Shown: in pieces, positions 12,090 to 50,067 of the stretch
How the letters are laid out: every line of letters begins with the position of its first letter
How positions within the stretch are numbered: position 1 is the stretch's first letter
NCBI GenBank assembly: GCA_947632345.1
Contig: CANROW010000001.1
Location: forward strand, 4,855-68,854
Direction of reading: 5' to 3'
Source: an uncultured Bacilli bacterium
GTDB taxonomy: Bacteria; Bacillota_I; Bacilli_A; RF39; UBA660
DNA: 64,000 nucleotides
Position numbers and translations under genes: made by a program
Notes under the pieces: model-generated
What the model was told of the DNA's origin: nothing
The model's database searches: none
The model's input: the letters and a program-made list of their open reading frames with translations, nothing else

Positions 12090-12345
12090 CCACCTCTAAA
12101 ATAAAAACACGATAATCATCACAAAAGGACGAGTTACCGTGTTACCACCTTAATTTATAGAATAATCTATACACTTAAAGATTTAACGCAATCCTACGCA
12201 TTAGTTTAATTATTCGACTAATGAACTCCGGAACCATTCTCAATACTCGTTCTATGCTTTCTTTCACCTATCAAAGCTCTCTAATAATAGAACATCAGTA
12301 TATCTCTTTCCCTCTTTGTTTCTTTCCAATAACTTGAGTGTATTA
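12090..12345 (-). promoter_or_regulatory. T-box riboswitch leader, probable Met specifier, with promoter, preceding the dut-SDR-metG operon
   Basis: On the minus strand: an extended -10 (TGTTATAAT); an AGAGAG box; AUG in the candidate specifier loop; the T-box antiterminator sequence AATTAAGGTGGTAACACGG, in which UGGU would pair with NCCA; and a terminator hairpin ACACGGTAA...TTATCGTGT followed by TTTTTATTTT immediately before the dut ribosome-binding site. Confidence 0.6.
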
Positions 12346-21806: not shown

Positions 21807-23444
21807 TTATAAATTCTCCTTTATCTCAATTTTACTCATATCAAATAATTCATTTGCTCTTTTTAATAAATTGCTATGAACTATTTGGCTCGAAGAATCA
21901 GCTTCATCATCTTTCTTTACCAATTCCTCAATATACTTATATTGTACATTATTTTTTATATTTTCTACATATTCTTTTTTAATTTTTAACCATTCATTGC
22001 TGGTTACAAAAATTAATTTTAATTCATAGTTCAAAATTTTACTTAAAGTTCTCTCATATTTGTCAATATACATATTTCCTTTTTCAACAAAAGAATCATA
22101 ACTATAACCCAATATTAAGTACTTAGGACTAGCTGCTAGAGGAATAGCATCTAAAAGCTCACAAACCAAAGCACCAAATTCTTTGTCAAAGGTATAATCA
22201 TTAAGTTTTTTCCAATTATTCTTAATATCAACTAAAATCTGCTTATTAACTTCAACAAACGTATTATTAATCCTAATATTTTTAAAATTATCGTCATTTT
22301 TCCAAGAAACTACTTTATTTTCAGATTCTTGTTGCAAAGTTTCATGTTCATTATTCAATATTATATTAGTTGCTTTATTTGATTCCGATATTTCTTCAGA
22401 TTTATTATTAATATTTATTTCCTGCTTCAAGACTTCTTGGCCTTCACAAATTTTATATATAGATATTTCGAAATATATTTTTCCTAAAGAAGCATCATGC
22501 ATATGATCAGCCGTTTCAAGCAGCGTCTCAACAATCGAACAAATGTTTTTGTTTTTGCTTTTTAACATTTTCTCCCTTAAGTTGCAAATAATCTTTTCAC
22601 AAATCTTCACTAGATCTTTTCCAGAATCATAATATTCATTAATTAATTGCAATACTGTATCCCTTTTCTTTTCAACAATTAGATCTGCTAAAAAATCAAT
22701 TTCATTATTTGATATAATACCGTTTATTGCAAAAATATCTTCATCAGTTATTTTATTATTAGTGTAAGAAGTTGCCATATCTAATAGGCTAATTGCGTCT
22801 CTTAAACCACCATCAGAGACATTAACTATCTCTTGAATGGCATCATCAGTTATGTCTATTTTTTCTAAATTGCTAATTTCTTTTAAACGTGCAAACATAT
22901 CTTTATTATTAATCTTTTTAAATTCAATAGTTTGACATCTTGAAACAATCGTACTAGGCACTTTATATAATTCCGTAGTAGCTAAAATAAAAATAATATG
23001 TTCTGGAGGCTCTTCAAGTGTTTTTAATAAAGCATTAAAAGCCGCATTTGATAACATATGAACTTCATCAATAATATATACTTTATATTTTAATACAGAA
23101 GGAATTAAATTAACTTTGCTTTTTAGTTCTCTTATTTCATCAACACCATTATTAGAAGCTGCATCTATTTCTAAAATATCAACACAATTATTATCAAAAG
23201 AGTTCTTACAAGCTAAACATTCACCACATGGTACACCATCTTTAATATTTTCACAATTGACCATTCTCGCAAATATTTTAGCAGTACTAGTTTTTCCGCA
23301 GCCTCTCGATCCAGTAAATAAGTAAGCATGACCAAACTTTTTATTTTCAACAGCATTTTTTAAAATATTAACAGCAACTGGTTGTCCATATATTTCATTC
23401 AAATTTTTAGGGCGATATTTTCTATATAACGCTTGATAGCCCAT
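21807..23444 (-). CDS. dnaX: DNA polymerase III subunit tau/gamma
   Basis: AAA+ Walker A (GSRGCGKTS), a zinc module (CGECLAC), and Walker B (IIDEVHML). The start was set at MGYQALYRKYRP because a GAAGGAGG ribosome-binding site precedes it. Confidence 0.9.
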   Translation of the reverse strand: MGYQALYRKYRPKNLNEIYGQPVAVNILKNAVENKKFGHAYLFTGSRGCGKTSTAKIFARMVNCENIKDGVPCGECLACKNSFDNNCVDILEIDAASNNGVDEIRELKSKVNLIPSVLKYKVYIIDEVHMLSNAAFNALLKTLEEPPEHIIFILATTELYKVPSTIVSRCQTIEFKKINNKDMFARLKEISNLEKIDITDDAIQEIVNVSDGGLRDAISLLDMATSYTNNKITDEDIFAINGIISNNEIDFLADLIVEKKRDTVLQLINEYYDSGKDLVKICEKIICNLREKMLKSKNKNICSIVETLLETADHMHDASLGKIYFEISIYKICEGQEVLKQEININNKSEEISESNKATNIILNNEHETLQQESENKVVSWKNDDNFKNIRINNTFVEVNKQILVDIKNNWKKLNDYTFDKEFGALVCELLDAIPLAASPKYLILGYSYDSFVEKGNMYIDKYERTLSKILNYELKLIFVTSNEWLKIKKEYVENIKNNVQYKYIEELVKKDDEADSSSQIVHSNLLKRANELFDMSKIEIKENL

Positions 23445-23549
23445 ATTTCCAAACCTCCTTCTTATCAATTATTATAACATTATCTTTTATTAAAAAAAAT
23501 TAATTTATTAATCATTTAGAGTAAATATTTTATTATTAACGCCAAAAAT

Positions 23550-23563
23550 ATTTCCCGGGAAAT
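23550..23563. promoter_or_regulatory. Noc-binding site, perfect ATTTCCCGGGAAAT
   Basis: Exact 14-bp palindrome. Confidence 0.75.
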
Positions 23564-23588
23564 AATTTTTATCAAATTAAAAATATAA

Positions 23589-23604
23589 TGTTTCACGTGA
23601 AACA
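23589..23604. promoter_or_regulatory. parS site, perfect TGTTTCACGTGAAACA
   Basis: Exact 16-bp palindrome matching the Firmicute parS consensus tGTTNCACGTGAAAca. Confidence 0.8.
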
Positions 23605-23739
23605 TAAAAATATAAAATAAAATATTTCAAGCAAATTATAATAATAATATTTATAAATATTTTTATATAATTAAAAAAGCATAATTACATAAATAACTCA
23701 AATGGCTTTCATATCATTAAATAAATGAGACTTAAAATT

Positions 23740-23752
23740 ATTTCCGGGAAAT
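23740..23752. promoter_or_regulatory. Noc-binding-site variant ATTTCCGGGAAAT, with one C deleted
   Basis: 13-bp version of the NBS palindrome. Confidence 0.5.
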
Positions 23753-23778
23753 AATTTAGCACTAGATCAATAATTAAA

Positions 23779-23794
23779 TGTTTCACGTGAAACA
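23779..23794. promoter_or_regulatory. parS site, perfect
   Basis: TGTTTCACGTGAAACA exact. Confidence 0.8.
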
Positions 23795-23801
23795 AAAAAA
23801 T

Positions 23802-23815
23802 ATTTCCTGGGAAAT
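23802..23815. promoter_or_regulatory. Noc-binding-site variant ATTTCCTGGGAAAT, with one mismatch
   Basis: One substitution relative to the NBS palindrome. It lies 8 bp downstream of the adjacent parS. Confidence 0.55.
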
Positions 23816-24029
23816 ATTTTTTGTACATTTTTAGACACGTTAATTTACAAATTATTTATAAAAATTTACATATAATTATTTTTAGGTTTTATAAATTTTT
23901 AGTATTTAAAAATGAGAATTATATGTTTTTTGCAAAAAAATGTTTTACATATTAATTTGTAAAAAATATCTTTTATATTAAGAAAAAAACGTAAAATATT
24001 GTATATTTTATATCAAAATGCATAATTAA

Positions 24030-24045
24030 TGTTTCACGTGAAACA
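24030..24045. promoter_or_regulatory. parS site, perfect
   Basis: TGTTTCACGTGAAACA exact. Confidence 0.8.
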
Positions 24046-24129
24046 TTATATAAAAATTTTTTTTATTTAAATTAACATTTTAAATATACAAATTTTTATA
24101 ACATTTTAAAAGTTTTGATCAACAAAATT

Positions 24130-24143
24130 ATTTCCCGGGAAAT
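24130..24143. promoter_or_regulatory. Noc-binding site, perfect
   Basis: ATTTCCCGGGAAAT exact. Confidence 0.75.
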
Positions 24144-24170
24144 AATTTAGAATTAGATTAATAATTATAA

Positions 24171-24186
24171 TGTTTCACGTGAAACA
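24171..24186. promoter_or_regulatory. parS site, perfect
   Basis: TGTTTCACGTGAAACA exact. Confidence 0.8.
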
Positions 24187-24194
24187 TAAAAAAT

Positions 24195-24208
24195 ATTTCC
24201 CGGGAAAT
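24195..24208. promoter_or_regulatory. Noc-binding site, perfect
   Basis: ATTTCCCGGGAAAT exact. It lies 8 bp downstream of the parS and immediately 3' of the tadA stop codon. Confidence 0.75.
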
Positions 24209-24212
24209 ATTT

Positions 24213-24659
24213 TTATTTATTTCTTTTGTTATAAAAAAAGATATTTATGAGATTTGAACATTCTTCTGAACAACAATTTTTAACCCAATTAATTTTTTTT
24301 AAAATATCAAAGCTAATATTTCTAGTTTCTAAATTATTATTAACGGCTCCTGTAATAATTCTTTTTATTCGCGATTGCTCAATAGCGCTTGCACACATAG
24401 GACATGGTTCTAATGTTATATATATTTCACAATCTTCTAATCGCCAATTGTTCAATTTTTTGTTTGCTTTATTAATGGCAATAATTTCAGCATGATCAAC
24501 TACTCTGTTGCTCATATTGCGAGTATTATAGGCTTTCGCTATTATTTTATTATCTTTTACGATAACAGCTCCTACAGGTATTTCATCTTTGTCCAATGCT
24601 TTTTTTGCTTCTTTTAAAGCAATCTTCATATATTTCTCATCATTCATAATTAACTCCAT
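24213..24659 (-). CDS. tadA: tRNA-specific adenosine deaminase
   Basis: CMP/dCMP deaminase zinc motifs (HAEIIAI, PCPMCASA). Confidence 0.85.
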   Translation of the reverse strand: MELIMNDEKYMKIALKEAKKALDKDEIPVGAVIVKDNKIIAKAYNTRNMSNRVVDHAEIIAINKANKKLNNWRLEDCEIYITLEPCPMCASAIEQSRIKRIITGAVNNNLETRNISFDILKKINWVKNCCSEECSNLINIFFYNKRNK

Positions 24660-24666
24660 AAAAAAT

Positions 24667-24740
24667 GATGCACATATATATAATTAGTTAAGGCTGCTAC
24701 CTTCCGATCCTGACCTGGTTCCCAACATATACATTGCATC
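24667..24740 (-). ncRNA. ffs: Small (4.5S-type) signal recognition particle RNA
   Basis: The minus-strand sequence GATGCAATGTATATGTTGGGAACCAGGTCAGGATCGGAAGGTAGCAGCCTTAACTAATTATATATATGTGCATC contains the SRP domain-IV consensus (CCAGGUCAGG..CGGAAGG.AGCAGCC). The two ends pair (GATGCA with TGCATC). A TTTTT run follows. Upstream are a TTGAAA -35, a 17-bp spacer and a TATATT -10. Confidence 0.65.
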
Positions 24741-24789
24741 GTTATTAATATATACTATTTATTCTTTTTTTTCAAGAAAAAGAGGAACT

Positions 24790-33980: not shown

Positions 33981-36290
33981 ATGTGTGATTGTGTGAAATT
34001 TGACTTATTAACTTATAACGAATTGAAAGCGTTAAACATCTTTAAACATCATCCGTGTTATGCTTATCCTACCAATTATGCATTATTATTGGGAGCATAT
34101 GTTTCAGAAGTTAGTACTCTTAATGCTTTGAGTTATGATCATCTCGATTATTTTCCAACGAATGGAGTAACATTTAAAAATGGAGTCACCAATTATCCAC
34201 TTCCAGGAATGTATTTTGATAAAGAATCTCTTAATTTTATAAAATTTGATGAAAAGAGTCCCATTCTTGATTTAGATGAACAGATTGTTTCAGGAAGTAA
34301 TTTCTTTTTAGATTCTGCGGTTTGTCCTAGACCAGTTGTGAAGTATTCTCAGATATCTCAGAATATGAAAAACATTAGAATAGGGGATAATGGTATTTTT
34401 GAAGGGGATTTTGGTGAAATGCCAACATCTTTTGTGGATAAAGATTTAGAAAAACGATTAGAAAGAGAGTATCAATCAAAACAATTAAAGATTACTGGCC
34501 GAAAATATTCATATAATTCTAGACCACCTGTTGATGCTTCATATATTGTTGATTTAGATGAAAATGTCGAGTATGAGTATAATGGCAAATATTATGTTCG
34601 CTTTGTCTCTTATAATAGTGAGGAATATGGAAATGATAATAGAGTAGGATTATATGTCAATCCTAGCTATTATGTTGAAAGTGAACACCCATATTGGCTA
34701 GAAGTAAAACCAATAAAATGGCTAATTGATAAAGAAGCTGATCTTGCTGTTATGAAATATCTTCCTTTTGCTGGGATTCCTTTTTATGGAATAGAGAATG
34801 GTAAGAATGGCGAGAGAAATGCACTAGATGATTTTTTATTAGTAAATGGATTAGAAGACTTAAAAGAACAGATTATCTCATATTTTAATAAGATGTTTGG
34901 TTTTGAGGAGGAAGAAAAAGAAGTAGAAGCTTCTGAAAATTGTTATATGTATTCCTTCTTAAATAACATTTTTGCCAAAGAGATTGTTGCACCTCGTCAA
35001 ATTCAAGATTATCGAAGTGACTTTTTTATAGTTGATCAACAGGAACTTTTTCCTGTCTTTTATCAAGATAATAAAAATAAAGATGAATTTGCTGACGAAT
35101 GTATAAGATATTTACTTTCTGTTACTAAAAAAACTCTTGAACTTCTTGAACAAATTAAAGAAATTGATCAACCAAGTACCGATCCAAATGTCTTTGCTGA
35201 AAAGATTAATGAGTATCGAAAACAAGTAGAGAAAGAAAATTATGCCTATGAGACGATAAAAGAAAAAGATATTTTTGATCGATTATTATCATGTATAGTA
35301 GAAGATGAAAACGTATGCGATCTCAATAGGGAATTAAGAATAATGAATAGTTCAAATAAAACCGCACTAGCAATGCAGAGAATTATTTCAAAATTACAAA
35401 AGATTACTGAAGATTACATTCTTCAGGATATACAAACTATTTTAAATGATAAAATAAAAGATTTACTTTTTGATAAAGATTCTTTGATTCAAGAAATTGA
35501 AAACGCAGTTGCGACTAATGATGAAATTCCTGAAGAAATAAAAGATTTTTTTAAGGAGTGGAAAGATTATCCAGATGAAATAAAAGGAGATATGGTTGAA
35601 CATCTAGTTGAAGACTTTAATAACAACATAAAAAGAGATTTGTTTGATAATGCCAAAATAGAAGAAGTAATGAAAAAAGCTTTTGAAGATCAAAAGCGCT
35701 TTGAATTTGCTAATCAAGTAAATAAAGATTGGCTTGAAGCGGTTATAGGATTTATTGAAAAATACGTTGATGGTGATTATTCTCAATACTATGACGAATT
35801 TAAAAATTTAAAATATAATATGATTTTCATATATCCAGAATTGGAAGAGAGAGCTTTAAAAGATGGTTTAAAATTACATTCAGATGTTTTGTTCCTCAAT
35901 CAAATTATTGCTGACAAATATAATTTTGATAGTAAGTTAGTAGATGACGTAAAGAATTCTTTTGGATATGAAATTATGAGTATCTGTTATCAACAATTGA
36001 AAGACTTGAAACATATTCATAGCTCTGATAACTATTATGGACAAGTATTAATTAACCATTTACTAATAAGAGCTGCATTATTATTTACTGATCGTGATTT
36101 TGTTTCTGATCTTGAGAAATGTTGTGAGTATAATCAATCTAGTGGTATTGTTTCTCCGAAAATTGGAGGAAAAGAGGGGACTCTTTCTGGAACGGGAAAC
36201 GATATATTTGAAGATGCTGTAAAGAGGCATAAAAGTGAAAAGGATGAAGAATTACCAAAAATTTTAAGTCTTAGAGCTAAAAATAATTAA
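33981..36290 (+). CDS. Hypothetical 769-aa cytoplasmic protein: an N-terminal roughly 270-aa domain paralogous to the next ORF, plus a long acidic alpha-helical C-terminal region
   Basis: Ribosome-binding site AAGGAG upstream. No TM or signal peptide. Shares motifs with the ORF at 36303..37478: PRPVVKYSQ against LRPVVAYSD; YEYNGKYYVRFV against YYYNGERYVRYV; VKPIKWLIDKE against VMPIKWLVDKE. Confidence 0.5.
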   Translation: MCDCVKFDLLTYNELKALNIFKHHPCYAYPTNYALLLGAYVSEVSTLNALSYDHLDYFPTNGVTFKNGVTNYPLPGMYFDKESLNFIKFDEKSPILDLDEQIVSGSNFFLDSAVCPRPVVKYSQISQNMKNIRIGDNGIFEGDFGEMPTSFVDKDLEKRLEREYQSKQLKITGRKYSYNSRPPVDASYIVDLDENVEYEYNGKYYVRFVSYNSEEYGNDNRVGLYVNPSYYVESEHPYWLEVKPIKWLIDKEADLAVMKYLPFAGIPFYGIENGKNGERNALDDFLLVNGLEDLKEQIISYFNKMFGFEEEEKEVEASENCYMYSFLNNIFAKEIVAPRQIQDYRSDFFIVDQQELFPVFYQDNKNKDEFADECIRYLLSVTKKTLELLEQIKEIDQPSTDPNVFAEKINEYRKQVEKENYAYETIKEKDIFDRLLSCIVEDENVCDLNRELRIMNSSNKTALAMQRIISKLQKITEDYILQDIQTILNDKIKDLLFDKDSLIQEIENAVATNDEIPEEIKDFFKEWKDYPDEIKGDMVEHLVEDFNNNIKRDLFDNAKIEEVMKKAFEDQKRFEFANQVNKDWLEAVIGFIEKYVDGDYSQYYDEFKNLKYNMIFIYPELEERALKDGLKLHSDVLFLNQIIADKYNFDSKLVDDVKNSFGYEIMSICYQQLKDLKHIHSSDNYYGQVLINHLLIRAALLFTDRDFVSDLEKCCEYNQSSGIVSPKIGGKEGTLSGTGNDIFEDAVKRHKSEKDEELPKILSLRAKNN

Positions 36291-36302: not shown

Positions 36303-37478
36303 ATGCTAAAAATAAACCTAGATTTATTAAAATATGAAGATGTATATAAATTAGATATATTAGCAAAGAGCGGTTATACTTGCAGTGCAACAAATTTTGC
36401 GCGAATCTTAGGAGCAAAAGTAAGTCCTAATAAAACTAGGGAAGGGGAGTTTTTAGAAGGAACTTATTTAGAACATGATCCGTGGGATGAATATTACGAA
36501 ACGGAATGGGAAACTAAAAGTTCTGTTGTTGATAAAAGGGGAATTAAACCTTATCTAATAAGGATTATCAGTCCTGCATATGATGAAAATTCAAAATATT
36601 TTTTTGAGCGAATTAATCTTCGACCAGTAGTCGCTTATTCTGATATAGCTGATCAAGTGCGCAATGAAAAAATCAATGTTTTAGGGATAAATGAAGTTGA
36701 ATTTGGTGAATATCCACAAAGAGGGACTTCTAATCTTGGAGAGATGATGCTTACTCGTGAATTAAATGCTGGAAATCTTGTTTCTAGTGGTAAGACATAT
36801 ACTGTTGATGAGACTTATGGTAAAGCTTATAATATATCAGTTACAGAAAAGAAACTTAACGAGTATTATTATAATGGCGAAAGATACGTTAGATATGTCG
36901 TTGAAGATCCGCGTAATAGTGCTGATGCTTTTTATAAATTGAAAAAGGGAAGTATTCATTTCTTTAAAGTAATGCCAATTAAATGGTTAGTAGATAAGGA
37001 AAAAAATATTGCCATTGCTAAAAATGTTTTCTTCTGTGGATGCAAATTTGCACCATATAAAATGAATTATCATGATATGTTAAGCTATCCAAATGAATGT
37101 GGAGGATATCAACGTTACTATGATGGTGATTTTGATAAGTCAGTCATAAACCAGTTTATGAATGAACACATTGCCAATGATATAATTGTGAGTGATAGTC
37201 AAGTTAGAAAATCACTTGATGTTAGTGCTGATTTTATAGATCTATGTCAAAAGGCATTTGTTTTACCAGAAGATGTGTTGAGTGGAAATAGTGCAAAGTA
37301 TGAACAAATTGATATTCCAGGTATACAATCTGCTATTGCTAAACAGTTGGCAGCAGTTGATGATGAATACTTTGATGTCACTAAAAAATTTGTCACAGGA
37401 TTTGGTGAAAAATTAAAATGTCCATTTGATTTTATGGTTAAAGAAGAAAGAATCCGCAGAAAATCAAAACAATTTTAA
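36303..37478 (+). CDS. Hypothetical 391-aa protein, paralogous to the N-terminal domain of the upstream ORF
   Basis: Ribosome-binding site GGGGGAAAATATG. Colinear similarity to residues 1..270 of the 769-aa protein. No recognised catalytic motif. Confidence 0.5.
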   Translation: MLKINLDLLKYEDVYKLDILAKSGYTCSATNFARILGAKVSPNKTREGEFLEGTYLEHDPWDEYYETEWETKSSVVDKRGIKPYLIRIISPAYDENSKYFFERINLRPVVAYSDIADQVRNEKINVLGINEVEFGEYPQRGTSNLGEMMLTRELNAGNLVSSGKTYTVDETYGKAYNISVTEKKLNEYYYNGERYVRYVVEDPRNSADAFYKLKKGSIHFFKVMPIKWLVDKEKNIAIAKNVFFCGCKFAPYKMNYHDMLSYPNECGGYQRYYDGDFDKSVINQFMNEHIANDIIVSDSQVRKSLDVSADFIDLCQKAFVLPEDVLSGNSAKYEQIDIPGIQSAIAKQLAAVDDEYFDVTKKFVTGFGEKLKCPFDFMVKEERIRRKSKQF

Positions 37479-39767: not shown

Positions 39768-41621
39768 TTATTCTTTATAAGTTTTTTGTTTAACTTTATA
39801 TAGACACCTTTTAATGTTATCTAATTGTTGATGAGAAAGAATCGTATGATAAATCATAGATTGGTATAATAAATCTTTATCGTCTTCAGCTGGTAATTCA
39901 AGTTTTAATGCGCTATAATTACGAAGAATTTTATTGCGGGAAATGTAAGTTCCATTAAAATTATAGATTTCTCCTTCCTCATCTAAATATAAGTTATCAA
40001 TATCTGGTAGTAATAGAGGACAACGTTTAATACTTATACGTGGTTTATCCCCAAGAATTCTTTCCATCTGTGTATCTATAAAATGTGGTGTGGCATTCTC
40101 AATGACCTCATCTAAACAACGTTGTGGTATGAGAAAAGAATTAGGAGTGAGAATGTTATGAGAAAATTCATCATCTTGAGTTAATATATCTAATCCAAAA
40201 TTTTCAGCAATGATTAAGCGTTTCATCATATTGCTAATATCTTCTCTATTTCCTTCAAATTTGATAATTTCGTTGACTGGTAGTTGGTGCTCTAAAGAAA
40301 AATCGACAAGGTCAAATAAATCAGTGTTTTTTAATAAATTTAAAACATTGTTATTAGTTAAGCTAAAGCCATATTCTTTTATGAGAGCTATTCTTTCTTT
40401 TAACTCATCCGTAGGTAATAATAAAATAGAAGGATCATAGTTCTTACTGCTAAATGAAACATTTTCTTCTTTTAACAATTGATAATTTTCATCGACAAGC
40501 TCTTTTAATCCATTAGGATTATCCTCTGTTTGCACTTCCAAAATATGAGGATGCGCGTCTAAAAATTCCCTTGTAACAGCAGATGTTTTGTAATAAGAAA
40601 TAATAGTCTCAGCAGCATTTTTATTTAGTTTTAACAAATTATATAGGCATTCTTTATTAGTAATAGTTTGAATAGGAAATCTATTTTGTTGAAATAAGGT
40701 TAAAAGTTCAGTTAAATGTTCAAGCTTTAAATCTAAACTCTCAATATCCATAATTAAACTGGGATGAATACCAAATTTTGTCAATAATTTATGTGGTTCA
40801 CTTTCTTTATTTAAATTGTTTTCTTCTTCCGTTAATTGTTCATATTTTTTTAACTGTTCTTGCAATATTTTTTCCATTAAACAACACTGAACTTCTAAAG
40901 GAAGATTTTTCCAACTTGAATCATAATCCTTAATACCATCACCACTTTTAATTTTTTTATCTATTTCTTCGTAAATGGCAATGGTTTTTAATTTTTTATG
41001 GATATTTTTATTTGTTTCGCCTGAATATTTTTGCAATTTCTCTAAAGTTTCGGAATAATTAGATACATTTTTAATTCTTTCGAAAAAATAATTCAAAAAT
41101 TTGTTTTTGTCTTTTGGCTTCATCTCTTTGATTTTTTCTTTTACTCGACGTTGACTTTCTTTTAGAAAAACTAAATTGATCCAATCGATAACTATTTGTT
41201 TATCAAATTTTATGTATTTCAATAATATATCAATAAATGGTTTATGTTTATTAATAGAGCCAATACCATTATGATCTAAGGGGATAGCTTGGATATTGAT
41301 ATCACTTACATCATCTATTGCTTTTAACTTAGTAAAGGCTGGAAATATACTATTTAAAAAACTACTTAAGTCATTATTAACACAATCATTACAATACTTA
41401 TTTAATTCATTAATAATATTTTTGACCTCTTCAACAGAAGTATCATTAGAATTTACCAATAAAACCAATCCAAATAATTCCCCAAAATTTAAATTGATGA
41501 GACTATCATAGGGAGAAGGATTATACTTACTATATAAGAAATTAAAGTACTTTAATCGTTTTTGAATATTTTCGACATCGGTTCTATCTTTCCCGCTTTC
41601 TATTAATTTTTCTAAATTCAT
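39768..41621 (-). CDS. Hypothetical 617-aa cytoplasmic protein (helical, repeat-like)
   Basis: Long ORF antisense to the surrounding plus-strand housekeeping block. No TM or signal peptide and no NTPase motifs. The C-terminal half has reiterated roughly 30-aa leucine-patterned helical segments. Confidence 0.45.
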   Translation of the reverse strand: MNLEKLIESGKDRTDVENIQKRLKYFNFLYSKYNPSPYDSLINLNFGELFGLVLLVNSNDTSVEEVKNIINELNKYCNDCVNNDLSSFLNSIFPAFTKLKAIDDVSDINIQAIPLDHNGIGSINKHKPFIDILLKYIKFDKQIVIDWINLVFLKESQRRVKEKIKEMKPKDKNKFLNYFFERIKNVSNYSETLEKLQKYSGETNKNIHKKLKTIAIYEEIDKKIKSGDGIKDYDSSWKNLPLEVQCCLMEKILQEQLKKYEQLTEEENNLNKESEPHKLLTKFGIHPSLIMDIESLDLKLEHLTELLTLFQQNRFPIQTITNKECLYNLLKLNKNAAETIISYYKTSAVTREFLDAHPHILEVQTEDNPNGLKELVDENYQLLKEENVSFSSKNYDPSILLLPTDELKERIALIKEYGFSLTNNNVLNLLKNTDLFDLVDFSLEHQLPVNEIIKFEGNREDISNMMKRLIIAENFGLDILTQDDEFSHNILTPNSFLIPQRCLDEVIENATPHFIDTQMERILGDKPRISIKRCPLLLPDIDNLYLDEEGEIYNFNGTYISRNKILRNYSALKLELPAEDDKDLLYQSMIYHTILSHQQLDNIKRCLYKVKQKTYKE

Positions 41622-41623
41622 AA

Positions 41624-42622
41624 TTACTGACCCCTTTTTAAAAGTTGTAATACTTTGGCACTCAACTCTTTTTGTTCTTCAATATAGTTCTGATCACTTA
41701 ATTTTTGGACGATATCATCGCGTTCTTTAATCCAAATTCCATACCTATTCGAGATAAATTTCCTTTGGGTTGTCGTCCATGATGTCTTTTTGTTCATAGC
41801 GCCCAATATAGCATAAATATTAGAAGAAATATGTGTCATATAAATACGCGCTTGATGGATTTTATTTTTGGCATAGACTACTTCTCTTGGACAAGATAAC
41901 CTGTTTAAAACCATTGATTCACCAGTAATTAATGGTTCAAAGATTTTTAAAAAATGTTTGTGCAAATCCGGTGGTAATTCTTGAAGATCTTGATAGAGAT
42001 ATGAGTTATTTGCTGAATTAGTCAAATGAATTAAAAGAGGATGATTTTTAGCTTCAATTATCTCATCATCTTCGGTGATATTGACGCGACAATTTTTCAA
42101 AACATTGAAAATCTCTTTTTTATGTTGAATCTGTTTTTTGATTTCGTCAAATTCTGTACCATCCATTGTTTCTTTAAATTCTAATAAGTAATCACTTGTG
42201 AAGACAATATCTTTTTGACATTCAATCATCAAATCATTAATAGTCGAATAAAAATTAGGATCGTTTATATTTGGTAATAGTGAAGCAATCGATTCAATTG
42301 GACTTGATTCAATCGTTCGCCATAATTTTTGTATTTTGGCATTAACTTTAATTTCTGAAACTGGTGATTGGTCTTCAGCAACGTTCTTTTCAGGAATGGA
42401 CGGAGGAGGTGTTGGTAAAATATATTTACTTCTCTGTTCAGCCTCTTTCAAATTTTTAATATTCTGTTCTTTCTCTTTAATAATACTTGCATTATACGTT
42501 TGGACAAGCTTTAAAAAATCCAATAAATCAGGTAAATCTGTAATATTGCTATCACTAGCTAATTGAATTGGATCAGATATATAATTTCCCTTGGCTAGGG
42601 TTTTAATTTCATCTAAACGCAT
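41624..42622 (-). CDS. Hypothetical 332-aa protein, immediately upstream of and co-oriented with the 617-aa ORF
   Basis: A 2-nt gap to the downstream ORF implies an operon. No recognised motif. Confidence 0.45.
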   Translation of the reverse strand: MRLDEIKTLAKGNYISDPIQLASDSNITDLPDLLDFLKLVQTYNASIIKEKEQNIKNLKEAEQRSKYILPTPPPSIPEKNVAEDQSPVSEIKVNAKIQKLWRTIESSPIESIASLLPNINDPNFYSTINDLMIECQKDIVFTSDYLLEFKETMDGTEFDEIKKQIQHKKEIFNVLKNCRVNITEDDEIIEAKNHPLLIHLTNSANNSYLYQDLQELPPDLHKHFLKIFEPLITGESMVLNRLSCPREVVYAKNKIHQARIYMTHISSNIYAILGAMNKKTSWTTTQRKFISNRYGIWIKERDDIVQKLSDQNYIEEQKELSAKVLQLLKRGQ

Positions 42623-46701: not shown

Positions 46702-46758
46702 AATGGATTTTATTATTATATAATTTAAGATAGAATAAGAATAGATGGAGGGTTGATT

Positions 46759-48297
46759 ATGGAAAATGAAGTTGTTCAATTGTATCTTGATGATATAATT
46801 CCTAATAGATTTCAACCAAGAGAGGTTTTTAATGATCAAGCATTAAAAGAATTAGCTATTTCAATTAGAGAACATGGAGTCATTCAGCCAATTATTGTAA
46901 GAAAGTTTGGAGATAAATACGAAATAATAGCTGGTGAAAGAAGATATAAAGCATCGACGATGGCAGGTCTTACCAAAATACCAGCAATTGTTAGAAATTT
47001 AGATGATAAGGAATCTTCAAAAGTTGCATTAATAGAGAATCTTCAAAGAAGAGATTTAACGCCAATCGAGGAAGCTCGTACATATCAAAAGATCTTGGAC
47101 TTAGATGAAATGACACAAGAAGATTTAGCCAAGACAATGGGAAAGAGTCAATCATCTGTATCTAATAAATTGCGTTTATTGTCATTACCAGATGAAGTGC
47201 AGGAAGCATTGTTAAAAGAAGAAATATCTGAAAGACATGCGCGCAGTCTATTGAATTTAAATGATAAAAATATGCAAGTTGAATTGTTGAAAGAAGTCAT
47301 CAGTACCAAGATGACCGTTCGTGATTTAGATGCAAAAATAAAAAAACTAACCGAGGGAGCTTCTAGTGAGTCCAGCGAGACAAGTGGTGGTAGTATGATG
47401 AATGTCGTAGAACAACCTGATCAAGAAAAAGCAAATGATTTGATAACCCCACCAGAACCTATGAGTGCAAATCAACCTTTAGAGAATTCTAATAATATAG
47501 AATCTCTCTTCACTAGTGCCAATTCAAGAACCACTGATAATTTATTTAGTGATAATGTTCAACCGACAAATGAAACAAATACAAATGATAATTTAGGAGC
47601 TGAAAATAAAATGAATAACGATAGTTTGTTTGGAAATAGCTCAAATCAAAATGATATCAATACAGTTCCAGATATACTTAATAATACCAATATTTTTGGA
47701 CCTCGTGATGTAACGAATGATCCGACGACCGTTGATATTAACAAAATTCGCGAGCAGTCAGCTGACATTGCACCAAAACCAACTGAACCATCTAAGAGTA
47801 TCTTTGATGTCAATGGTTTGGTTAATAAGAATGTTGATGTCAACTCTTCAACTAATAATGCTAGCAGTTTCATTCCAAAATTTAATGATGAACAAGAAGC
47901 TAAACCTGAAACTACTAATATAAATGGTAATGGATTACTTTCTGGTATGCCTAGCTTAAAACCAGTTGAAAATACACCAACGCCAAATAGCTCTAATACA
48001 TCTAGTCTATTCGGTTCTTCCATTGAACAAAATACTTCTAGTGTGAATAATAATAGTTTATTCACTACACCAACCGTAGATACAATAAAGACAAATAATG
48101 AAAGCTTATTCGGTTCAAATCCTAATAACTCTTCAATGATTGCTGATAGTATGGTATCATCTAATAGTGTTACTAAAGCAGTTCAAGATGTTAAAGATGT
48201 TATTAAGGCATGTCAAGATAAAGGATATAAAGTATCTGTAGAAGAGTTAAATTTAGATAATGAAATTCAATTAATAGTAAAATTTAATAAGGACTAA
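46759..48297 (+). CDS. noc: Nucleoid occlusion protein Noc (ParB paralogue) carrying a roughly 230-aa Asn/Ser/Thr-rich disordered insertion and lacking the N-terminal amphipathic helix
   Basis: ParB N-terminal domain (IPNRFQPR, GERR). The helix-turn-helix region carries Noc-type residues (GKSQSSVSNKLRLL, ITERHAR-like EISERHARSL). A conserved C-terminal dimerisation-like segment (KGYKVSVEELNLDNEIQLIVKF) follows the low-complexity region. A GGAGGG ribosome-binding site precedes ATG 46759. Confidence 0.75.
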   Translation: MENEVVQLYLDDIIPNRFQPREVFNDQALKELAISIREHGVIQPIIVRKFGDKYEIIAGERRYKASTMAGLTKIPAIVRNLDDKESSKVALIENLQRRDLTPIEEARTYQKILDLDEMTQEDLAKTMGKSQSSVSNKLRLLSLPDEVQEALLKEEISERHARSLLNLNDKNMQVELLKEVISTKMTVRDLDAKIKKLTEGASSESSETSGGSMMNVVEQPDQEKANDLITPPEPMSANQPLENSNNIESLFTSANSRTTDNLFSDNVQPTNETNTNDNLGAENKMNNDSLFGNSSNQNDINTVPDILNNTNIFGPRDVTNDPTTVDINKIREQSADIAPKPTEPSKSIFDVNGLVNKNVDVNSSTNNASSFIPKFNDEQEAKPETTNINGNGLLSGMPSLKPVENTPTPNSSNTSSLFGSSIEQNTSSVNNNSLFTTPTVDTIKTNNESLFGSNPNNSSMIADSMVSSNSVTKAVQDVKDVIKACQDKGYKVSVEELNLDNEIQLIVKFNKD

Positions 48298-48413: not shown

Positions 48414-49202
48414 ATGGGAAAGGTAATATCTTTGGTTAATCAAAAGGGTGGAGTAGGAAAGACAACAACTAGTATAAATCTTTCGGCGTCTCTAGCTGTG
48501 TTAGGGAAAAAAGTTTTATTAATTGATTTAGATCCTCAAGGTAATGCAACGACGGGAATTGGAATAAATAAAGGTGAGATAGAAAATAGTATATATGATG
48601 TATTGACGGATACCTGTGATATTGAAGAAGCAATTATCACTAGTAAATATAAAAGATTATATGTCATCCCATCAACAATTAGATTAGCTGGTATTAATAC
48701 AGAGTTAGTTGAAAGAGGAATAGATGATGCGAGTTTTGTGCGTGGGGCGCAACTAAAGAATAAATTAGATGGTGTCAAAGATAATTTTGATTTTGTCATT
48801 ATCGATTGCCCACCAGCATTAGATTGGATTACGACAAATGCCTTGACAGCCTCTGATTCAGTTATTATTCCTGTACAATGTGAATTCTTTGCGTTAGAAG
48901 GAATAATGCAATTATTGAACAGCATTGTCAAAGCTCAAGAGAAATTGAACCCTAAACTTGATATAGAAGGCGTATTACTAACAATGTTGGATTCAAGGAC
49001 AAATTTGGGATTTGACGTCGTAGAAGATATCAGAAAGTTTTTCAAAGAGAGGGTTTACAACACAATTATTCCAAGATTGATAAGACTTACAGAAGCACCA
49101 TCTCATGGGAAACCAATAGTAGCTTATGATCCTAAAAGTAAAGGAACAGAAGCATATTTAAATTTAGCTAAGGAAGTGATTGAGAGAAATGGACACAACT
49201 AG
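48414..49202 (+). CDS. soj: Chromosome partitioning ATPase ParA/Soj
   Basis: Deviant Walker A motif NQKGGVGKTTT and ParA family length. Confidence 0.9.
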   Translation: MGKVISLVNQKGGVGKTTTSINLSASLAVLGKKVLLIDLDPQGNATTGIGINKGEIENSIYDVLTDTCDIEEAIITSKYKRLYVIPSTIRLAGINTELVERGIDDASFVRGAQLKNKLDGVKDNFDFVIIDCPPALDWITTNALTASDSVIIPVQCEFFALEGIMQLLNSIVKAQEKLNPKLDIEGVLLTMLDSRTNLGFDVVEDIRKFFKERVYNTIIPRLIRLTEAPSHGKPIVAYDPKSKGTEAYLNLAKEVIERNGHN

Positions 49203-50067
49203 AAGAAGAGCATTAGGTAAAGGACTTGAAGAATTGTTTAGTAATGAACAATTAGATTTTAATAAAATGGAAGAAAAAATAGTCAATTCAACTCCTAAAG
49301 AAGAAATTGTGGAAATTAAATTGGCTGATTTACGAAGCAATCCGTATCAACCAAGAAAGATATTTGATGAAGAAAAATTAAAAGAATTAGCCGATTCAAT
49401 CAAAGAACACGGTGTCTTTCAACCTATAATTGTTAAGAGAAGCATTAAAGGATACGACATTATTGCTGGTGAGCGAAGAGTAAAAGCTTGTCAAATGGCT
49501 GGTCTTGAGACAATTCCAGCTATCATTAGAGATTTCTCTGATTCTGATATGATGGAAATTGCTCTTTTAGAAAATCTTCAAAGGGAAAATTTAAATCCTA
49601 TTGAAGAAGCTGATGCATACAGAAAACTATTAGATTCATTGAGCTTGACACAAGATGAGTTGGCCAAAAGACTCGGAAAGAGTAGAAGTCATATTACTAA
49701 TATGTTGGGATTATTAAATTTACCAGATGAAGTTAAAAGTTTGATAAATGAAAATAAAATCTCAATGAGTCATGCTCGTGTTTTGAGTAAAATGGAGGAT
49801 AAAGAAAAAATTGATGATTTCGTCAATATGATTTTGAATGATAATCTCAATGTTCGTGAAATGGAAGAATTATCTAGAACTGCGGATGTTTCAAAGACTC
49901 ATAAAATAAATCGCAAACCACAAGAGAATGAATATAGTTATTTAGAGGATGAATTGTCTGACAAATTGGGAACGAGAGTTAAGATAAAGAAGAATAAGAT
50001 AGAGATAGTGTTTACTAATAATAGTGATTTAAATCGTATTTTAGAAATTATGAATTTAAACGATTAG
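49189..50067 (+). CDS. spo0J: Chromosome partitioning protein ParB/Spo0J
   Basis: ParB boxes (GERR, ENLQREN). The helix-turn-helix region has ParB-type residues (GKSRSHITNMLGLL). The ATG at 49189 overlaps the soj stop codon. Confidence 0.85.
   Translation: MDTTRRRALGKGLEELFSNEQLDFNKMEEKIVNSTPKEEIVEIKLADLRSNPYQPRKIFDEEKLKELADSIKEHGVFQPIIVKRSIKGYDIIAGERRVKACQMAGLETIPAIIRDFSDSDMMEIALLENLQRENLNPIEEADAYRKLLDSLSLTQDELAKRLGKSRSHITNMLGLLNLPDEVKSLINENKISMSHARVLSKMEDKEKIDDFVNMILNDNLNVREMEELSRTADVSKTHKINRKPQENEYSYLEDELSDKLGTRVKIKKNKIEIVFTNNSDLNRILEIMNLND

Follow-up and report, generated by a model that had tools for sequence, protein, structure and literature searches.

We identify the open reading frame of 512 codons that lies between rsmG and soj, in the window of 64,000 nucleotides that comprises the whole stretch of DNA analysed here, as an orthologue of noc which, as judged from its sequence, keeps those parts of Noc from which a site-specific, CTP-gated DNA clamp is built. 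The canonical N-terminal membrane helix is absent from this protein, and the short, basic connector that joins the DNA-binding domain (DBD) to the C-terminal domain (CTD) in canonical Noc is replaced by an acidic tether of 268 amino acids that is predicted to be disordered. Our preferred interpretation, put forward tentatively, is that of a helix-less Noc clamp with a functional acidic tether, one major site of action of which may be an origin-proximal array of NBS and parS sites. The architecture is not peculiar to one genome: a very large group of uncultured, AT-rich Bacilli has Noc in this form throughout the lineage.

The gene order of the locus is rsmG-noc-soj-spo0J and the 512-aa reading frame occupies the noc position, between rsmG (gidB) and soj-spo0J. 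The gene, described initially as a Noc paralogue, is thus the positional orthologue of noc and there is no extra copy. The reading frame is real and starts with the ATG at 46759, and a protein beginning MENEVV, or similarly, is found in all close homologues; the TTG at 46753, which adjoins the ribosome-binding site, was considered as a start and rejected. An in-frame stop codon lies 10 codons before the ATG, that is, 8 codons before the TTG and not 2 as first reported. The accompanying statement that no in-frame upstream extension is possible nevertheless stands, because this stop is close by and the gap from rsmG to noc is just 57 nt. This segment of the window is AT-rich (29% GC) and origin-proximal. 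The notion that the protein is an artefact of annotation or assembly, through a wrong start codon, a frameshift or the fusion of two genes, is effectively refuted and its probability negligible: we found no evidence in its support, beyond noting that a 100% identical protein is known from one NCBI contig only, and against it stand the well-placed ribosome-binding site and ATG, the nearby stop, the narrow intergenic gap and the recurrence of the same architecture in 75 complete loci from different species, as well as in the best 120 and the best 150 matches of two database searches. The features of the locus are collected in Table 1.

Table 1. Features of the noc locus and of the NBS/parS array, in coordinates of the window.
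Feature	Position	Strand	Basis
Interleaved array of 4 NBS (ATTTCCCGGGAAAT) and 4 perfect parS (TGTTTCACGTGAAACA) sites, between dnaX and tadA	23550..24208	.	Site search
Ribosome-binding site GGAGGG, 6 nt 5' of the ATG	46747..46752	+	Read directly from the sequence
noc orthologue, 512 aa, without N-terminal membrane helix and with long linker	46759..48297	+	ORF call, Pfam, NCBIfam, homologues, structure alignment
ParB N-terminal (CTP-binding) domain, residues 4-96	46768..47046	+	Pfam ParB_N (E 1e-34), structure alignment, relatives
Helix-turn-helix (HTH) DNA-binding domain, residues 99-198	47053..47352	+	Pfam HTH_ParB; NBS-type Q131, K137 and R159, fourth position S142
Disordered acidic Asn/Ser/Thr-rich linker, residues 200-467 (~268 aa)	47356..48159	+	Composition, AF2, relatives
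Span with eight [SN][LI]F[GSTD] motifs	47497..48117	+	Shuffles, conserved context, sub-threshold Pfam match
Conserved linker motif A, DPTTVDINKIREQSADI, residues 321-337	47719..47769	+	Predicted short helix at 327-333
Linker motif C, degenerate copy, SSFIPKFNDEQE, residues 369-380	47863..47898	+	Family consensus comparison
Conserved linker motif D, GNGLLSGMPSLKP, residues 390-402	47926..47964	+	Relatives
Noc-type C-terminal dimerisation domain, residues 468-512 (about 44 aa), one helix and two strands	48160..48294	+	AF2, hhalign
soj (parA)	48414..49202	+	Pfam, NCBIfam
spo0J (parB), 295 aa, canonical length	49180..50067	+	ALGKGLEELF N-terminal motif, ParB_C domain

The identity of the protein as a Noc rests on synteny, on its best sequence and structure matches, on the residues Q131, K137 and R159, on the NBS sites in the window and on the homology of its CTD. 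Against the NCBIfam model nucleoid_noc (TIGR04285) it scores 288.1 bits, compared with 248 for the window's own Spo0J. This falls short of the curated whole-protein cut-off of 315 bits, and just positions 1-202 of the 255 in the model are aligned because the linker interrupts the match. The closest solved structures for residues 1-199 are those of the Geobacillus and Bacillus subtilis Noc proteins (7NG0 and 7NFU are matched at E 5e-65), and Foldseek superposition on Noc structures gives TM-scores of 0.80-0.84 with an rmsd of 2.2 Å. The CTP-binding motifs are intact, GERR (59-62) within the ParB N-terminal domain and ENLQR (93-97) at its C-terminal edge, and all nine of these residues (G59, E60, R61, R62, E93, N94, L95, Q96 and R97) are invariant in 65 relatives, in agreement with the alignment to the Noc structures.

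The NBS specificity residues of the HTH domain, found in the segments GKSQSS (Q131), NKLRLL (K137) and SERHAR (R159), are likewise invariant in the 65 relatives. They fit the published code for NBS recognition, Q173/K179/K184/R201 in the numbering of the Caulobacter ParB, in which a single permissive Lys at either of two positions is enough (PMC7383237); by the same report the Ser at position 142, where Lys is the usual Noc residue, would be tolerated, so that the Noc-type specificity residues recognised in the initial annotation are borne out. The parS-type residues (R173 and G201) and the N-terminal ParA-activating peptide LG(K/R)GL are absent from the protein, which has Q131, R159 and the N-terminus MENEVV in their place. 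The window's Spo0J has both ParB features, with R, the parS-type residue, at the Q/R specificity position and ALGKGLEELF at its N-terminus. At the other end of the protein, the segment first described as dimerisation-like is a homologue of the Noc CTD: hhalign matches the CTDs of the 349 family members to those of 118 canonical Nocs with a probability of 98.4% (E 9.5e-15). AF2 models this segment with a pLDDT of ~90.

The N-terminal amphipathic membrane-targeting helix of Noc (aa 1-10/15) has been reported to be extremely conserved across all homologues examined (PMC4331003), and to be switched by CTP (PMC8429893). The N-terminus of the present protein, MENEVVQLYLDD, leaves 13 residues before the IPNRFQPR box, compared with 38 in B. 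subtilis Noc. The shortness remarked upon in the initial annotation is therefore real, though the count of 9 residues given there is too low and its figure of roughly 40 for B. subtilis is to be read as 38; from the resulting deficit of 25 residues it follows that the amphipathic membrane-targeting helix is missing. The N-terminus reaches a HeliQuest-type D of 0.45 at best, where the B. subtilis helix has 1.13, and nowhere else in the protein, for which the best value is 0.77, is a strong amphipathic, positively charged helix predicted. The same holds across the family, with a median N-terminal D of -0.29 and a net charge of -2, compared with a median D of 1.16 for canonical N-termini; when 349 relatives were searched with a profile (HMM) of the N-termini of 110 canonical Nocs, nothing rose above the reversed-sequence control. 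Across 75 related loci that are complete, the room between an in-frame stop and the box never exceeds 55 codons, 20-35 being usual, and no Noc-type helix is encoded there. An alternative or frameshifted start that would restore the helix is rejected on the strength of these loci and of the stop upstream of the gene. From the sequence we infer that direct lipid binding through the amphipathic helix has been lost; that the protein is not membrane-tethered is a statement we would make only conditionally, because indirect tethering, via a partner or via weak motifs in the linker, may occur.

In our sample the helix is missing wherever the linker is present, and nowhere else. All of the ~349 relatives, which range from 313 to 821 aa, lack the helix and have a long linker, whereas the 118 canonical Nocs that we examined (251-294 aa) have the helix and leave no room for such a linker. 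The linker is at least ~90 aa long in 349/349 relatives and spans ~90-500 aa family-wide, a 5-fold variation in length. The low-complexity segment is therefore common to the lineage, as the initial annotation had allowed it might be, but no protein was seen to combine it with a membrane helix. Linkers of the 349 relatives are net negative in 99.7% of cases, with a median charge of -24, and in those of the family Trp and Cys are absent and Arg and His very nearly so. The expansion is Noc-specific, because Spo0J in the same genomes stays at ~298 aa: the same-locus median lengths are 298 aa for Spo0J and 464 aa for Noc, with a single Spo0J exception of 404 aa. The clade amounts to at least 150 clusters at 50% identity. 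These are fast-evolving Bacilli, whose metagenome-assembled genomes are deposited as 'Bacilli', 'Tenericutes', 'Mycoplasma sp.' or 'Erysipelotrichaceae'.

In the protein studied here the linker is 42% Asn, Ser and Thr, with 35 acidic and 13 basic residues, and is predicted to be disordered. Its position between the DNA-binding and C-terminal segments is as initially described; its size, put at 230 aa, is in fact ~268 aa. Eight [SN][LI]F[GSTD] motifs, with Phe at residues 251, 263, 291, 313, 349, 418, 435 and 451, compare with 0.12 expected in shuffled sequences, and 0/20,000 shuffles reach eight (p<5e-5). The context of these motifs is conserved among the 50 closest relatives and is limited to the target's subclade rather than being family-wide. 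Two explanations of the peptide repeats were rejected. Recent tandem duplication at the DNA level is not borne out by Tandem Repeats Finder, which gave no match in the linker, and a beta-clamp-binding motif (QL[SD]LF), considered for the SLF repeats, is contradicted by the lack of a preference for Gln at position -4: among 650 Phe contexts in the 50 close relatives this position holds N, S, T, F or E, with Gln outside the five commonest residues, and 0/8 of the motifs in the target have a Gln four residues before the Phe. Motif A stands above the reversed-sequence control in 196/349 relatives and is the sole linker helix that AF2 predicts with raised confidence. Motif C, with the family consensus [KR]F[IVF][PN]x[FL] followed by acidic residues, exceeds the reversed-sequence threshold in 91/349 relatives, and the target's own copy falls below it. 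Both A and C are conserved, and keep the same order along the linker, in relatives with 58-100% identity in the N-terminal domain (NTD), and outside the short motifs the linker is unalignable. A database search with the conserved segment (residues 320-407) for other protein contexts returned no candidate with enough shared words.

The parS/NBS array noted initially, and with it the NBS sites in the window, proves to be real and conserved in the lineage. The NBS sites in the window, 3 of them exact and 1 with one mismatch, against 0.41 expected by chance, all fall within the array, and the cluster is ~9 kb from dnaA. In a survey that covered origin-proximal DNA only, exact NBS sites occur in 8/80 related loci and paired NBS-parS sites in at least 120 metagenomic loci, ~115 of 120 of which share the gyrA-tadA-dnaX synteny. 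Both this Noc and Spo0J are likely to load at the sites of the array, and a redirection of Noc function towards the array, as the initial annotation suggested, is plausible. Isolated NBS sites are also seen outside the arrays, which suggests that Noc is not confined to them.

In the reading that we tentatively favour, Noc would load at NBS sites and then close and slide as a CTP clamp, and the tether would be functional rather than junk, a flexible arm whose conserved short motifs (helix A, motif C, motif D and, in the target's subclade, the repeated SLFG-type motifs) dock one or more protein partners. The tether would also greatly enlarge the lumen of the clamp. The conserved origin-proximal array would be a major site of action, with Noc and Spo0J clamps loaded side by side, and, purely by inference from the architecture of ParB clamps, a wide, DNA-repelling lumen might allow Noc clamps past parS-bound Spo0J. 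We argue that the linker is probably under selection and not drift, on account of its universal presence, its constant acidity, the collinear motifs A and C, the placement of Phe and the unexpanded Spo0J. Several observations count against the favoured reading: the unalignable linker and its 5-fold range of length are as expected under weak constraint, AT-biased drift could account for the richness in Asn, Ser and Thr, motif C of the target is a degenerate copy that does not reach the control threshold, and there are the isolated NBS sites outside arrays. A bolder version, which we regard as rather improbable, is that in this lineage the occlusion of the nucleoid, or the handling of the origin, was rebuilt so as to need no direct contact with the membrane: the interleaved NBS/parS sites would form a composite 'double centromere' next to gyrA on which Noc and Spo0J are loaded together, and the linker would widen the clamp, so that it could slide past Spo0J, and capture a division or anchoring protein, so that Noc acted by sequestering a partner rather than by bridging DNA and membrane. 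One candidate for such a capture motif is motif C, in which the core, [IV]-P-x-F, is similar to the C-terminal peptide of FtsZ, which is IPxF.

Membrane binding may alternatively have been relocated, one or more linker motifs inserting into the membrane so that Noc would still bridge it to DNA, and the perfect pairing of helix loss with linker gain speaks for this. The candidates are motif C, which in some subclades reads GKFINYGEIEQE or NKFFNFLEDE, near the canonical SRFFGLGEKEQE, and the repeated SLFG motifs. In ungapped comparisons of windows by BLOSUM, z for motif C rises to 5-6 and 17% of members are at p<=0.05 versus shuffles, although the enrichment is weak, and the best amphipathic score of the target's linker is at motif C. 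That score, a D of 0.77, is marginal beside the 1.13-1.16 of true Noc helices; Pro is usual in motif C, the target's copy has no basic residue and is below threshold, and the linkers are strongly acidic and almost Arg-free, and hence unfavourable on anionic membranes. After the empty profile search of the 349 relatives we set a relocated membrane helix aside as the main reading and keep it as an unlikely rival.

It is similarly improbable that this is a degenerate Noc, which has lost membrane-tethered nucleoid occlusion and survives only as an NBS-bound DNA organiser or replication regulator (S. aureus Noc, for instance, restrains initiation), its linker being largely a neutral expansion of the kind typical of AT-rich, reduced genomes. 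Asn, Ser and Thr match AT-rich codons, the length varies from 313 to 821 aa, alignability is poor with no tandem repeat at the DNA level, the NBS cluster is near dnaA and a role for Noc in replication has been described (PMC5540599). Neutral expansion sits poorly, however, with a same-locus Spo0J that is, bar one, unexpanded, with a linker that no relative has lost, that is acidic across the family and in which Arg, Trp, His and Cys are avoided, with motifs that remain conserved and collinear, and with a Phe pattern so far from that of shuffled sequences. This same Phe pattern, set in polar spacers and conserved in context in the close relatives, would also suit a sticker-and-spacer linker like that of the FG-nucleoporins, which might form Noc-DNA condensates or a steric brush round NBS-marked DNA and exclude the division machinery without membrane contact. 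ParB proteins do form condensates, and Pfam Nucleoporin_FG matches residues 244-320 at 27.3 bits, with the same family precomputed on several relatives. This match is below the Pfam gathering cut-off of 32.2 bits, the SLFG context does not extend beyond the target's subclade, and Asp and Glu make up 19% of the spacers, an acidity that in nucleoporins goes with non-cohesive domains; we consider this reading very unlikely.

The current model of Noc rests on the N-terminal amphipathic helix, and here a large natural clade keeps the NBS-specific CTP clamp without it, always pairing its loss with a long acidic disordered tether between DBD and CTD and with NBS interleaved with parS near the origin. 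Were our reading to hold, membrane tethering would not be universal to Noc function, the clade would be a natural experiment in which to see what a larger or differently charged DNA chamber does to the sliding of a ParB clamp, and the array would be a composite Noc/ParB loading locus, of which we know of no earlier description. The NCBIfam Noc model under-calls the proteins of the clade, which are annotated only as 'ParB/RepB/Spo0J family'.

Compared with canonical Noc (B. subtilis YyaA/Noc and G. thermoleovorans Noc; PDB 7OL9, 7NFU, 7NG0 and 6Y93), the protein has the same chromosomal position, 48-55% identity over residues 1-199, the same fold of NTD and DBD, the CTP-binding motifs, the NBS-type Q/K/R, palindromic NBS sites and a homologous CTD. 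It differs in lacking the amphipathic helix and its acidic spacer, in the long acidic linker that stands where canonical Noc has a basic connector of ~20 aa (KRKPKPRRK), in the Ser at the fourth specificity position and in the interleaving of NBS with parS. Its natural N-terminus starts almost exactly where that of the engineered NocNdelta26deltaCTD does (PDB 7NG0, PMC8429893), residue 4 of the query corresponding to residue 3 of the chain. In B. subtilis the truncation NocNdelta10 abolishes membrane binding and function (PMC4331003); the truncated form seen here is, unlike such engineered deletions, what a large lineage conserves as its wild type, and it always has the long linker. With chromosomal ParB/Spo0J it shares the architecture of ParB/Srx NTD, HTH and CTD together with the CTP-clamp motifs, but it has Q for R at the position that discriminates parS from NBS, R159 for Gly (Ser in its own Spo0J) and no N-terminal LG(K/R)GL peptide, and a canonical Spo0J, 295 aa long, is encoded separately in the genome. 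The likeness to FG-nucleoporin repeat domains (PF13634), hydrophobic-Phe-Gly repeats in polar, disordered, aromatic-poor sequence, is one of analogy only: the match is sub-threshold, the protein is bacterial, its spacers are acidic, the repeats belong to one subclade and there is no sign of common descent. RicO of S. aureus (bioRxiv 10.64898/2026.03.06.710092) offers a functional analogy, as a site-specific DNA-binding protein at origin-proximal sites, but it is unrelated and bridges DNA to the membrane by a C-terminal amphipathic helix, of which none is predicted here.

The product of the noc gene in the window descends from Noc and is, almost certainly, a Noc orthologue without the N-terminal helix. 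Pfam places ParB_N at residues 4-96 and HTH_ParB at residues 99-198, and a search of solved structures returned Geobacillus Noc 7NG0/7NFU (E 5e-65) and B. subtilis Noc 7OL9 as the top relatives, Noc structures ranking above every Spo0J/ParB chain. Over residues 1-199 the AF2 model fits apo-Noc 7NFU with a TM-score of 0.80-0.84 and an rmsd of 2.2 Å, and neither CTP-binding motif, GERR (59-62) or ENLQR (93-97), varies among 65 relatives. Jalal et al. (PMC7383237) identified Q173, K179, K184 and R201 as the four specificity residues and found that a single Lys, at 179 or 184, is enough; the protein carries Q131, K137, S142 and R159 at these positions, where the neighbouring Spo0J of the window has R, M, N and S. 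The C-terminal 44 residues, confidently modelled by AF2 as one helix and two strands, are homologous to the C-terminal domain of canonical Noc (CTD; profile-profile probability 98.4%, E 9.5e-15). The protein is an NBS-type (Noc binding site), CTP-motif-bearing, CTD-dimerising Noc orthologue. It scores 288 bits against the NCBIfam Noc model, compared with 248 for the window's own Spo0J, and stays below the 315-bit cut-off, since the linker between the DNA-binding domain and the CTD (residues 200-467) interrupts the match, leaving model positions 1-202 of 255 aligned. The model overlooks the whole clade in this manner, and public records therefore label such proteins only as 'ParB/RepB/Spo0J family' partition proteins.

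The genes run mnmE, mnmG, rsmG, noc, soj, spo0J, with dnaA, dnaN, recF, gyrB and gyrA across the origin region. Because the slot between rsmG and soj-spo0J is the one that noc fills in B. subtilis, the gene is the positional orthologue of noc; the initial annotation had called it a paralogue, but it is not an additional copy. Between dnaA and mnmE lie four ORFs without a Pfam match, which appear to be an insertion adjoining the origin, since at least one contig among the related ones (L191) has mnmG and dnaA only ~3.8 kb apart.

Features of the window and motifs of the Noc protein (window coordinates unless residues are stated)
Feature	Position	Strand	Remarks
noc ORF	ATG 46759 to stop 48295-48297	+	512 aa
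ORF	33981-36290	+	769 aa, no Pfam match at E<=1e-5
ORF	36303-37478	+	391 aa, no Pfam match at E<=1e-5
ORF	39768-41621	-	617 aa, no Pfam match at E<=1e-5
ORF	41624-42622	-	332 aa, no Pfam match at E<=1e-5
T-box leader	12122-12325	-	ordinary feature
dnaX	21807-23468		one flank of array
NBS/parS array	23550-24208		4 NBS and 4 perfect parS, interleaved; dnaX-tadA intergenic region
Array unit, decayed	23733-23818		left NBS with 1-bp deletion (ATTTCCGGGAAAT, ~23740); right NBS with one mismatch (23802)
Array unit, intact	24127-24210		
tadA	24213-24659		other flank of array
Bacterial small SRP RNA	24653-24750	-	7-nt overlap with tadA start; ordinary feature
Motif A	residues 321-337		[ND]Pxx[VLM]D[IV][DN]xIxxxAxDI; contains AF2 helix
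D[LIV]xxLL island	after motif A		
Motif C			[KR]F[IVF][PN]x[FL], then acidic residues; copy SSFIPKFNDEQE, degenerate
Motif D			GNGLLAGMPVIKP

The Noc proteins of B. subtilis and Geobacillus begin with MKHSFSRFFGLGEKEQEPEIAEHDTNKEE and MKHPFSRLFSFGEKEQEE, respectively. In the alignment, residue 3-4 of the present protein falls opposite residue 28-29 in B. subtilis Noc and opposite residue 3 in the engineered NocNdelta26 chain, so that 25 residues, the helix and its acidic spacer, are gone. In the AF2 model residues 4-9 already lie in beta-strand 1 of the ParB fold, and the HeliQuest-type amphipathicity score D reaches at best 0.45 within residues 1-25, where the B. subtilis N-terminus scores 1.13. 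The ATG is preceded at 6 nt by a GGAGGG, and close homologues begin with MENEVV, MENSEVV and similar; the TTG at 46753 abuts the GGAGGG site and is not the start. The gap to rsmG is only 57 nt, with an in-frame stop 10 codons 5' of the ATG. The absence of the membrane helix, as first annotated, is borne out. Two counts needed correction, the stop lying eight codons and not two before the TTG, and the IPNRFQPR box being preceded by 13 residues and not nine; the conclusions drawn from them, that no upstream extension is possible and that the N-terminus is short, stand.

Neither the missing helix nor the linker is an oddity of one genome: both are lineage-wide. The best 120 database hits (356-593 aa) all start M-x(1-6)-EVVxLYLDDIIPNRFQPRE and, except for P0047 and P0052, which are C-terminally divergent or truncated, end in a Noc CTD. 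In 75 complete loci, taken from representatives of GTDB species, an in-frame stop excludes a canonical N-terminal extension; their proteins (~320-690 aa) have N-terminal domains 58-100% identical to that of the window protein. An exhaustive phmmer search of 1.84 billion cluster representatives, queried with residues 1-200, gave, among the best 150 hits, 147 of 313-821 aa and 145 beginning no more than 8 residues from the query start; the odd ones were a chimeric fragment (P0189), entries of 245 and 221 aa and four apparent mis-called starts. That the finding is an artefact has next to no chance of being correct. The median length of the 349 distinct pooled relatives (the family) is 464 aa; a query with B. 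subtilis Noc retrieved 118 canonical ones, which span 251-294 aa, and almost all of the 110 with a complete N-terminus start MKH[PS]FSRFFGLGEKE. The N-terminal D has a median of 1.16 in canonical Noc and of -0.29 in the family, which has a net N-terminal charge of -2. Helix loss and linker gain co-occur without exception in the sample. Adams et al. (PMC4331003) described the Noc N-terminus as extremely conserved and predicted the helix in every homologue they examined, a statement to which this clade is an exception.

The cognate sites of the protein cluster with parS, the Spo0J (ParB) site, near the origin. The NBS palindrome ATTTCCCGGGAAAT has three exact copies and one single-mismatch copy in the window (0.41 expected), and perfect parS, TGTTTCACGTGAAACA, has four copies (0.04 expected), in an array adjoined by the SRP RNA and gyrA. 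The array holds two copies of a ~85-bp unit, NBS-27 bp-parS-8 bp-NBS. When metagenome contigs were scanned for NBS-N(4-34)-parS, at least 120 loci matched. Among the matches listed, median GC is 26.5%, each locus has 1-9 NBS and 1-10 parS, the order gyrB-gyrA-[array]-tadA-[array]-dnaX-recR-holB recurs in ~115 of 120, and GyrA and DnaX are 47-78% and 36-69% identical to the window proteins. The composite array is conserved across this AT-rich lineage, where it looks to be a composite locus for the loading of Noc and Spo0J; as none of the listed loci contains noc, its link to this type of Noc rests on the window and on synteny. Gaps between adjacent NBS and parS in loci L081-L200 peak at 11-14 and 20-22 bp, with a small rise at ~30-32 bp, and hence hint at phasing to the ~10-bp helical repeat. 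In the NBS/parS comparison, which covered origin-proximal DNA, exact NBS were found in 8 of 80 related loci (608 kb, ~30% GC), and NBS also occur as isolated sites outside arrays. Six different species (L010, L012, L013, L015, L030, L051) have an exact NBS at a similar position ~2.7 kb 5' of noc (~1050-1366), probably within mnmG or at its start; no site occupies the corresponding place in the window.

The linker is a long, acidic, disordered tether with conserved motifs. Nearly all of residues 200-467 have pLDDT <50 (AF2, 65-sequence alignment), the exception being a short helix at 327-333 (pLDDT ~68). Residues 199-468 hold 47 Asn, 40 Ser and 26 Thr; acidic residues number 35 and basic ones 13, and Trp, Tyr, His and Cys are absent. 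Family linkers (median 218 aa) are net negative in 99.7% of cases (median charge -24), with Arg below 1%, almost no His and neither Trp nor Cys. That the linker is degenerate or neutral, the protein having a role on DNA only, such as replication control, would suit sequences that are otherwise unalignable, yet we think it improbable, for short conserved islands stand within them. Motif A is found in 196 and motif C in 91 of the 349 members (HMMs, reversed-sequence threshold), A preceding C in all 62 that hold both; the window protein's own motif C copy falls under this threshold. Spo0J, whose gene lies directly 3' of noc, served as an internal control in 36 of the same loci: it measures 291-305 aa apart from a single 404-aa protein, and keeps its usual N-terminal ALG[KR]GLEELF peptide, where Noc has a median of 464 aa. 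AT-driven drift alone would not single out Noc, and the Noc linker looks to be under selection.

An FG-like condensation or steric brush is less probable still. Eight of the ten Phe in the linker lie in [SN][LI]F[GSTD] motifs (8 observed, shuffle mean 0.12; none of 20,000 shuffles reached 8), with no DNA tandem repeat beneath them, and these account for a Pfam Nucleoporin_FG match of 27.3 bits, under the 32.2 threshold. The S-L-F-G context is peculiar to the 50 closest relatives, in which the Phe is preceded by Leu at -1 in 60% and by Ser at -2 in 44%, and followed by Gly at +1 in 29%. The Spo0J N-terminus ALG[KR]GLEELF[NS]NE (window 49180-50067; loci L001-L080) ends in an ELF[NS] resembling the SLF[GST] repeats of Noc, a likeness of three residues that may be due to chance. 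It is also unlikely, about as much so as a neutral linker, that the linker provides an alternative membrane contact. Motif C takes the form GKFINYGEIEQE or NKFFNFLEDE in some subclades, near the canonical SRFFGLGEKEQE, and such members reach z-scores of up to 6 in an ungapped BLOSUM window test; however, the family-wide enrichment is weak (p<=0.05 in 17% and 9% of members for two reference peptides) and the window protein itself gives p=0.1. A profile HMM of 110 canonical N-termini found nothing in the family above the reversed-sequence control, the top amphipathic D in the linker is a marginal 0.77, and the linkers are acidic, which makes this a rival rather than the main reading.

The reading we prefer on this computational evidence, at a little under an even chance for the whole, is that this Noc would load and slide as a CTP clamp, would not bind lipid through an amphipathic helix and would display on its tether docking motifs for one or more partners. 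The DNA chamber of ParB-type clamps is walled by the connector between the DNA-binding domain and the CTD; a long tether would therefore give a very wide, DNA-repelling lumen, which might let Noc pass over Spo0J at interleaved sites.

Full-text literature searches turned up no account of a helix-less Noc, a long-linker Noc or paired NBS/parS arrays, and the clade-wide helix loss and composite array, both directly testable, should surprise a ParB/Noc specialist. Compared with known systems, the protein probably works in the same way as the ParB/Noc clamp; it falls below the cut-off of the curated NCBIfam Noc model, and it departs from Noc in one respect that publications regard as defining for Noc function: the membrane-targeting helix is missing.
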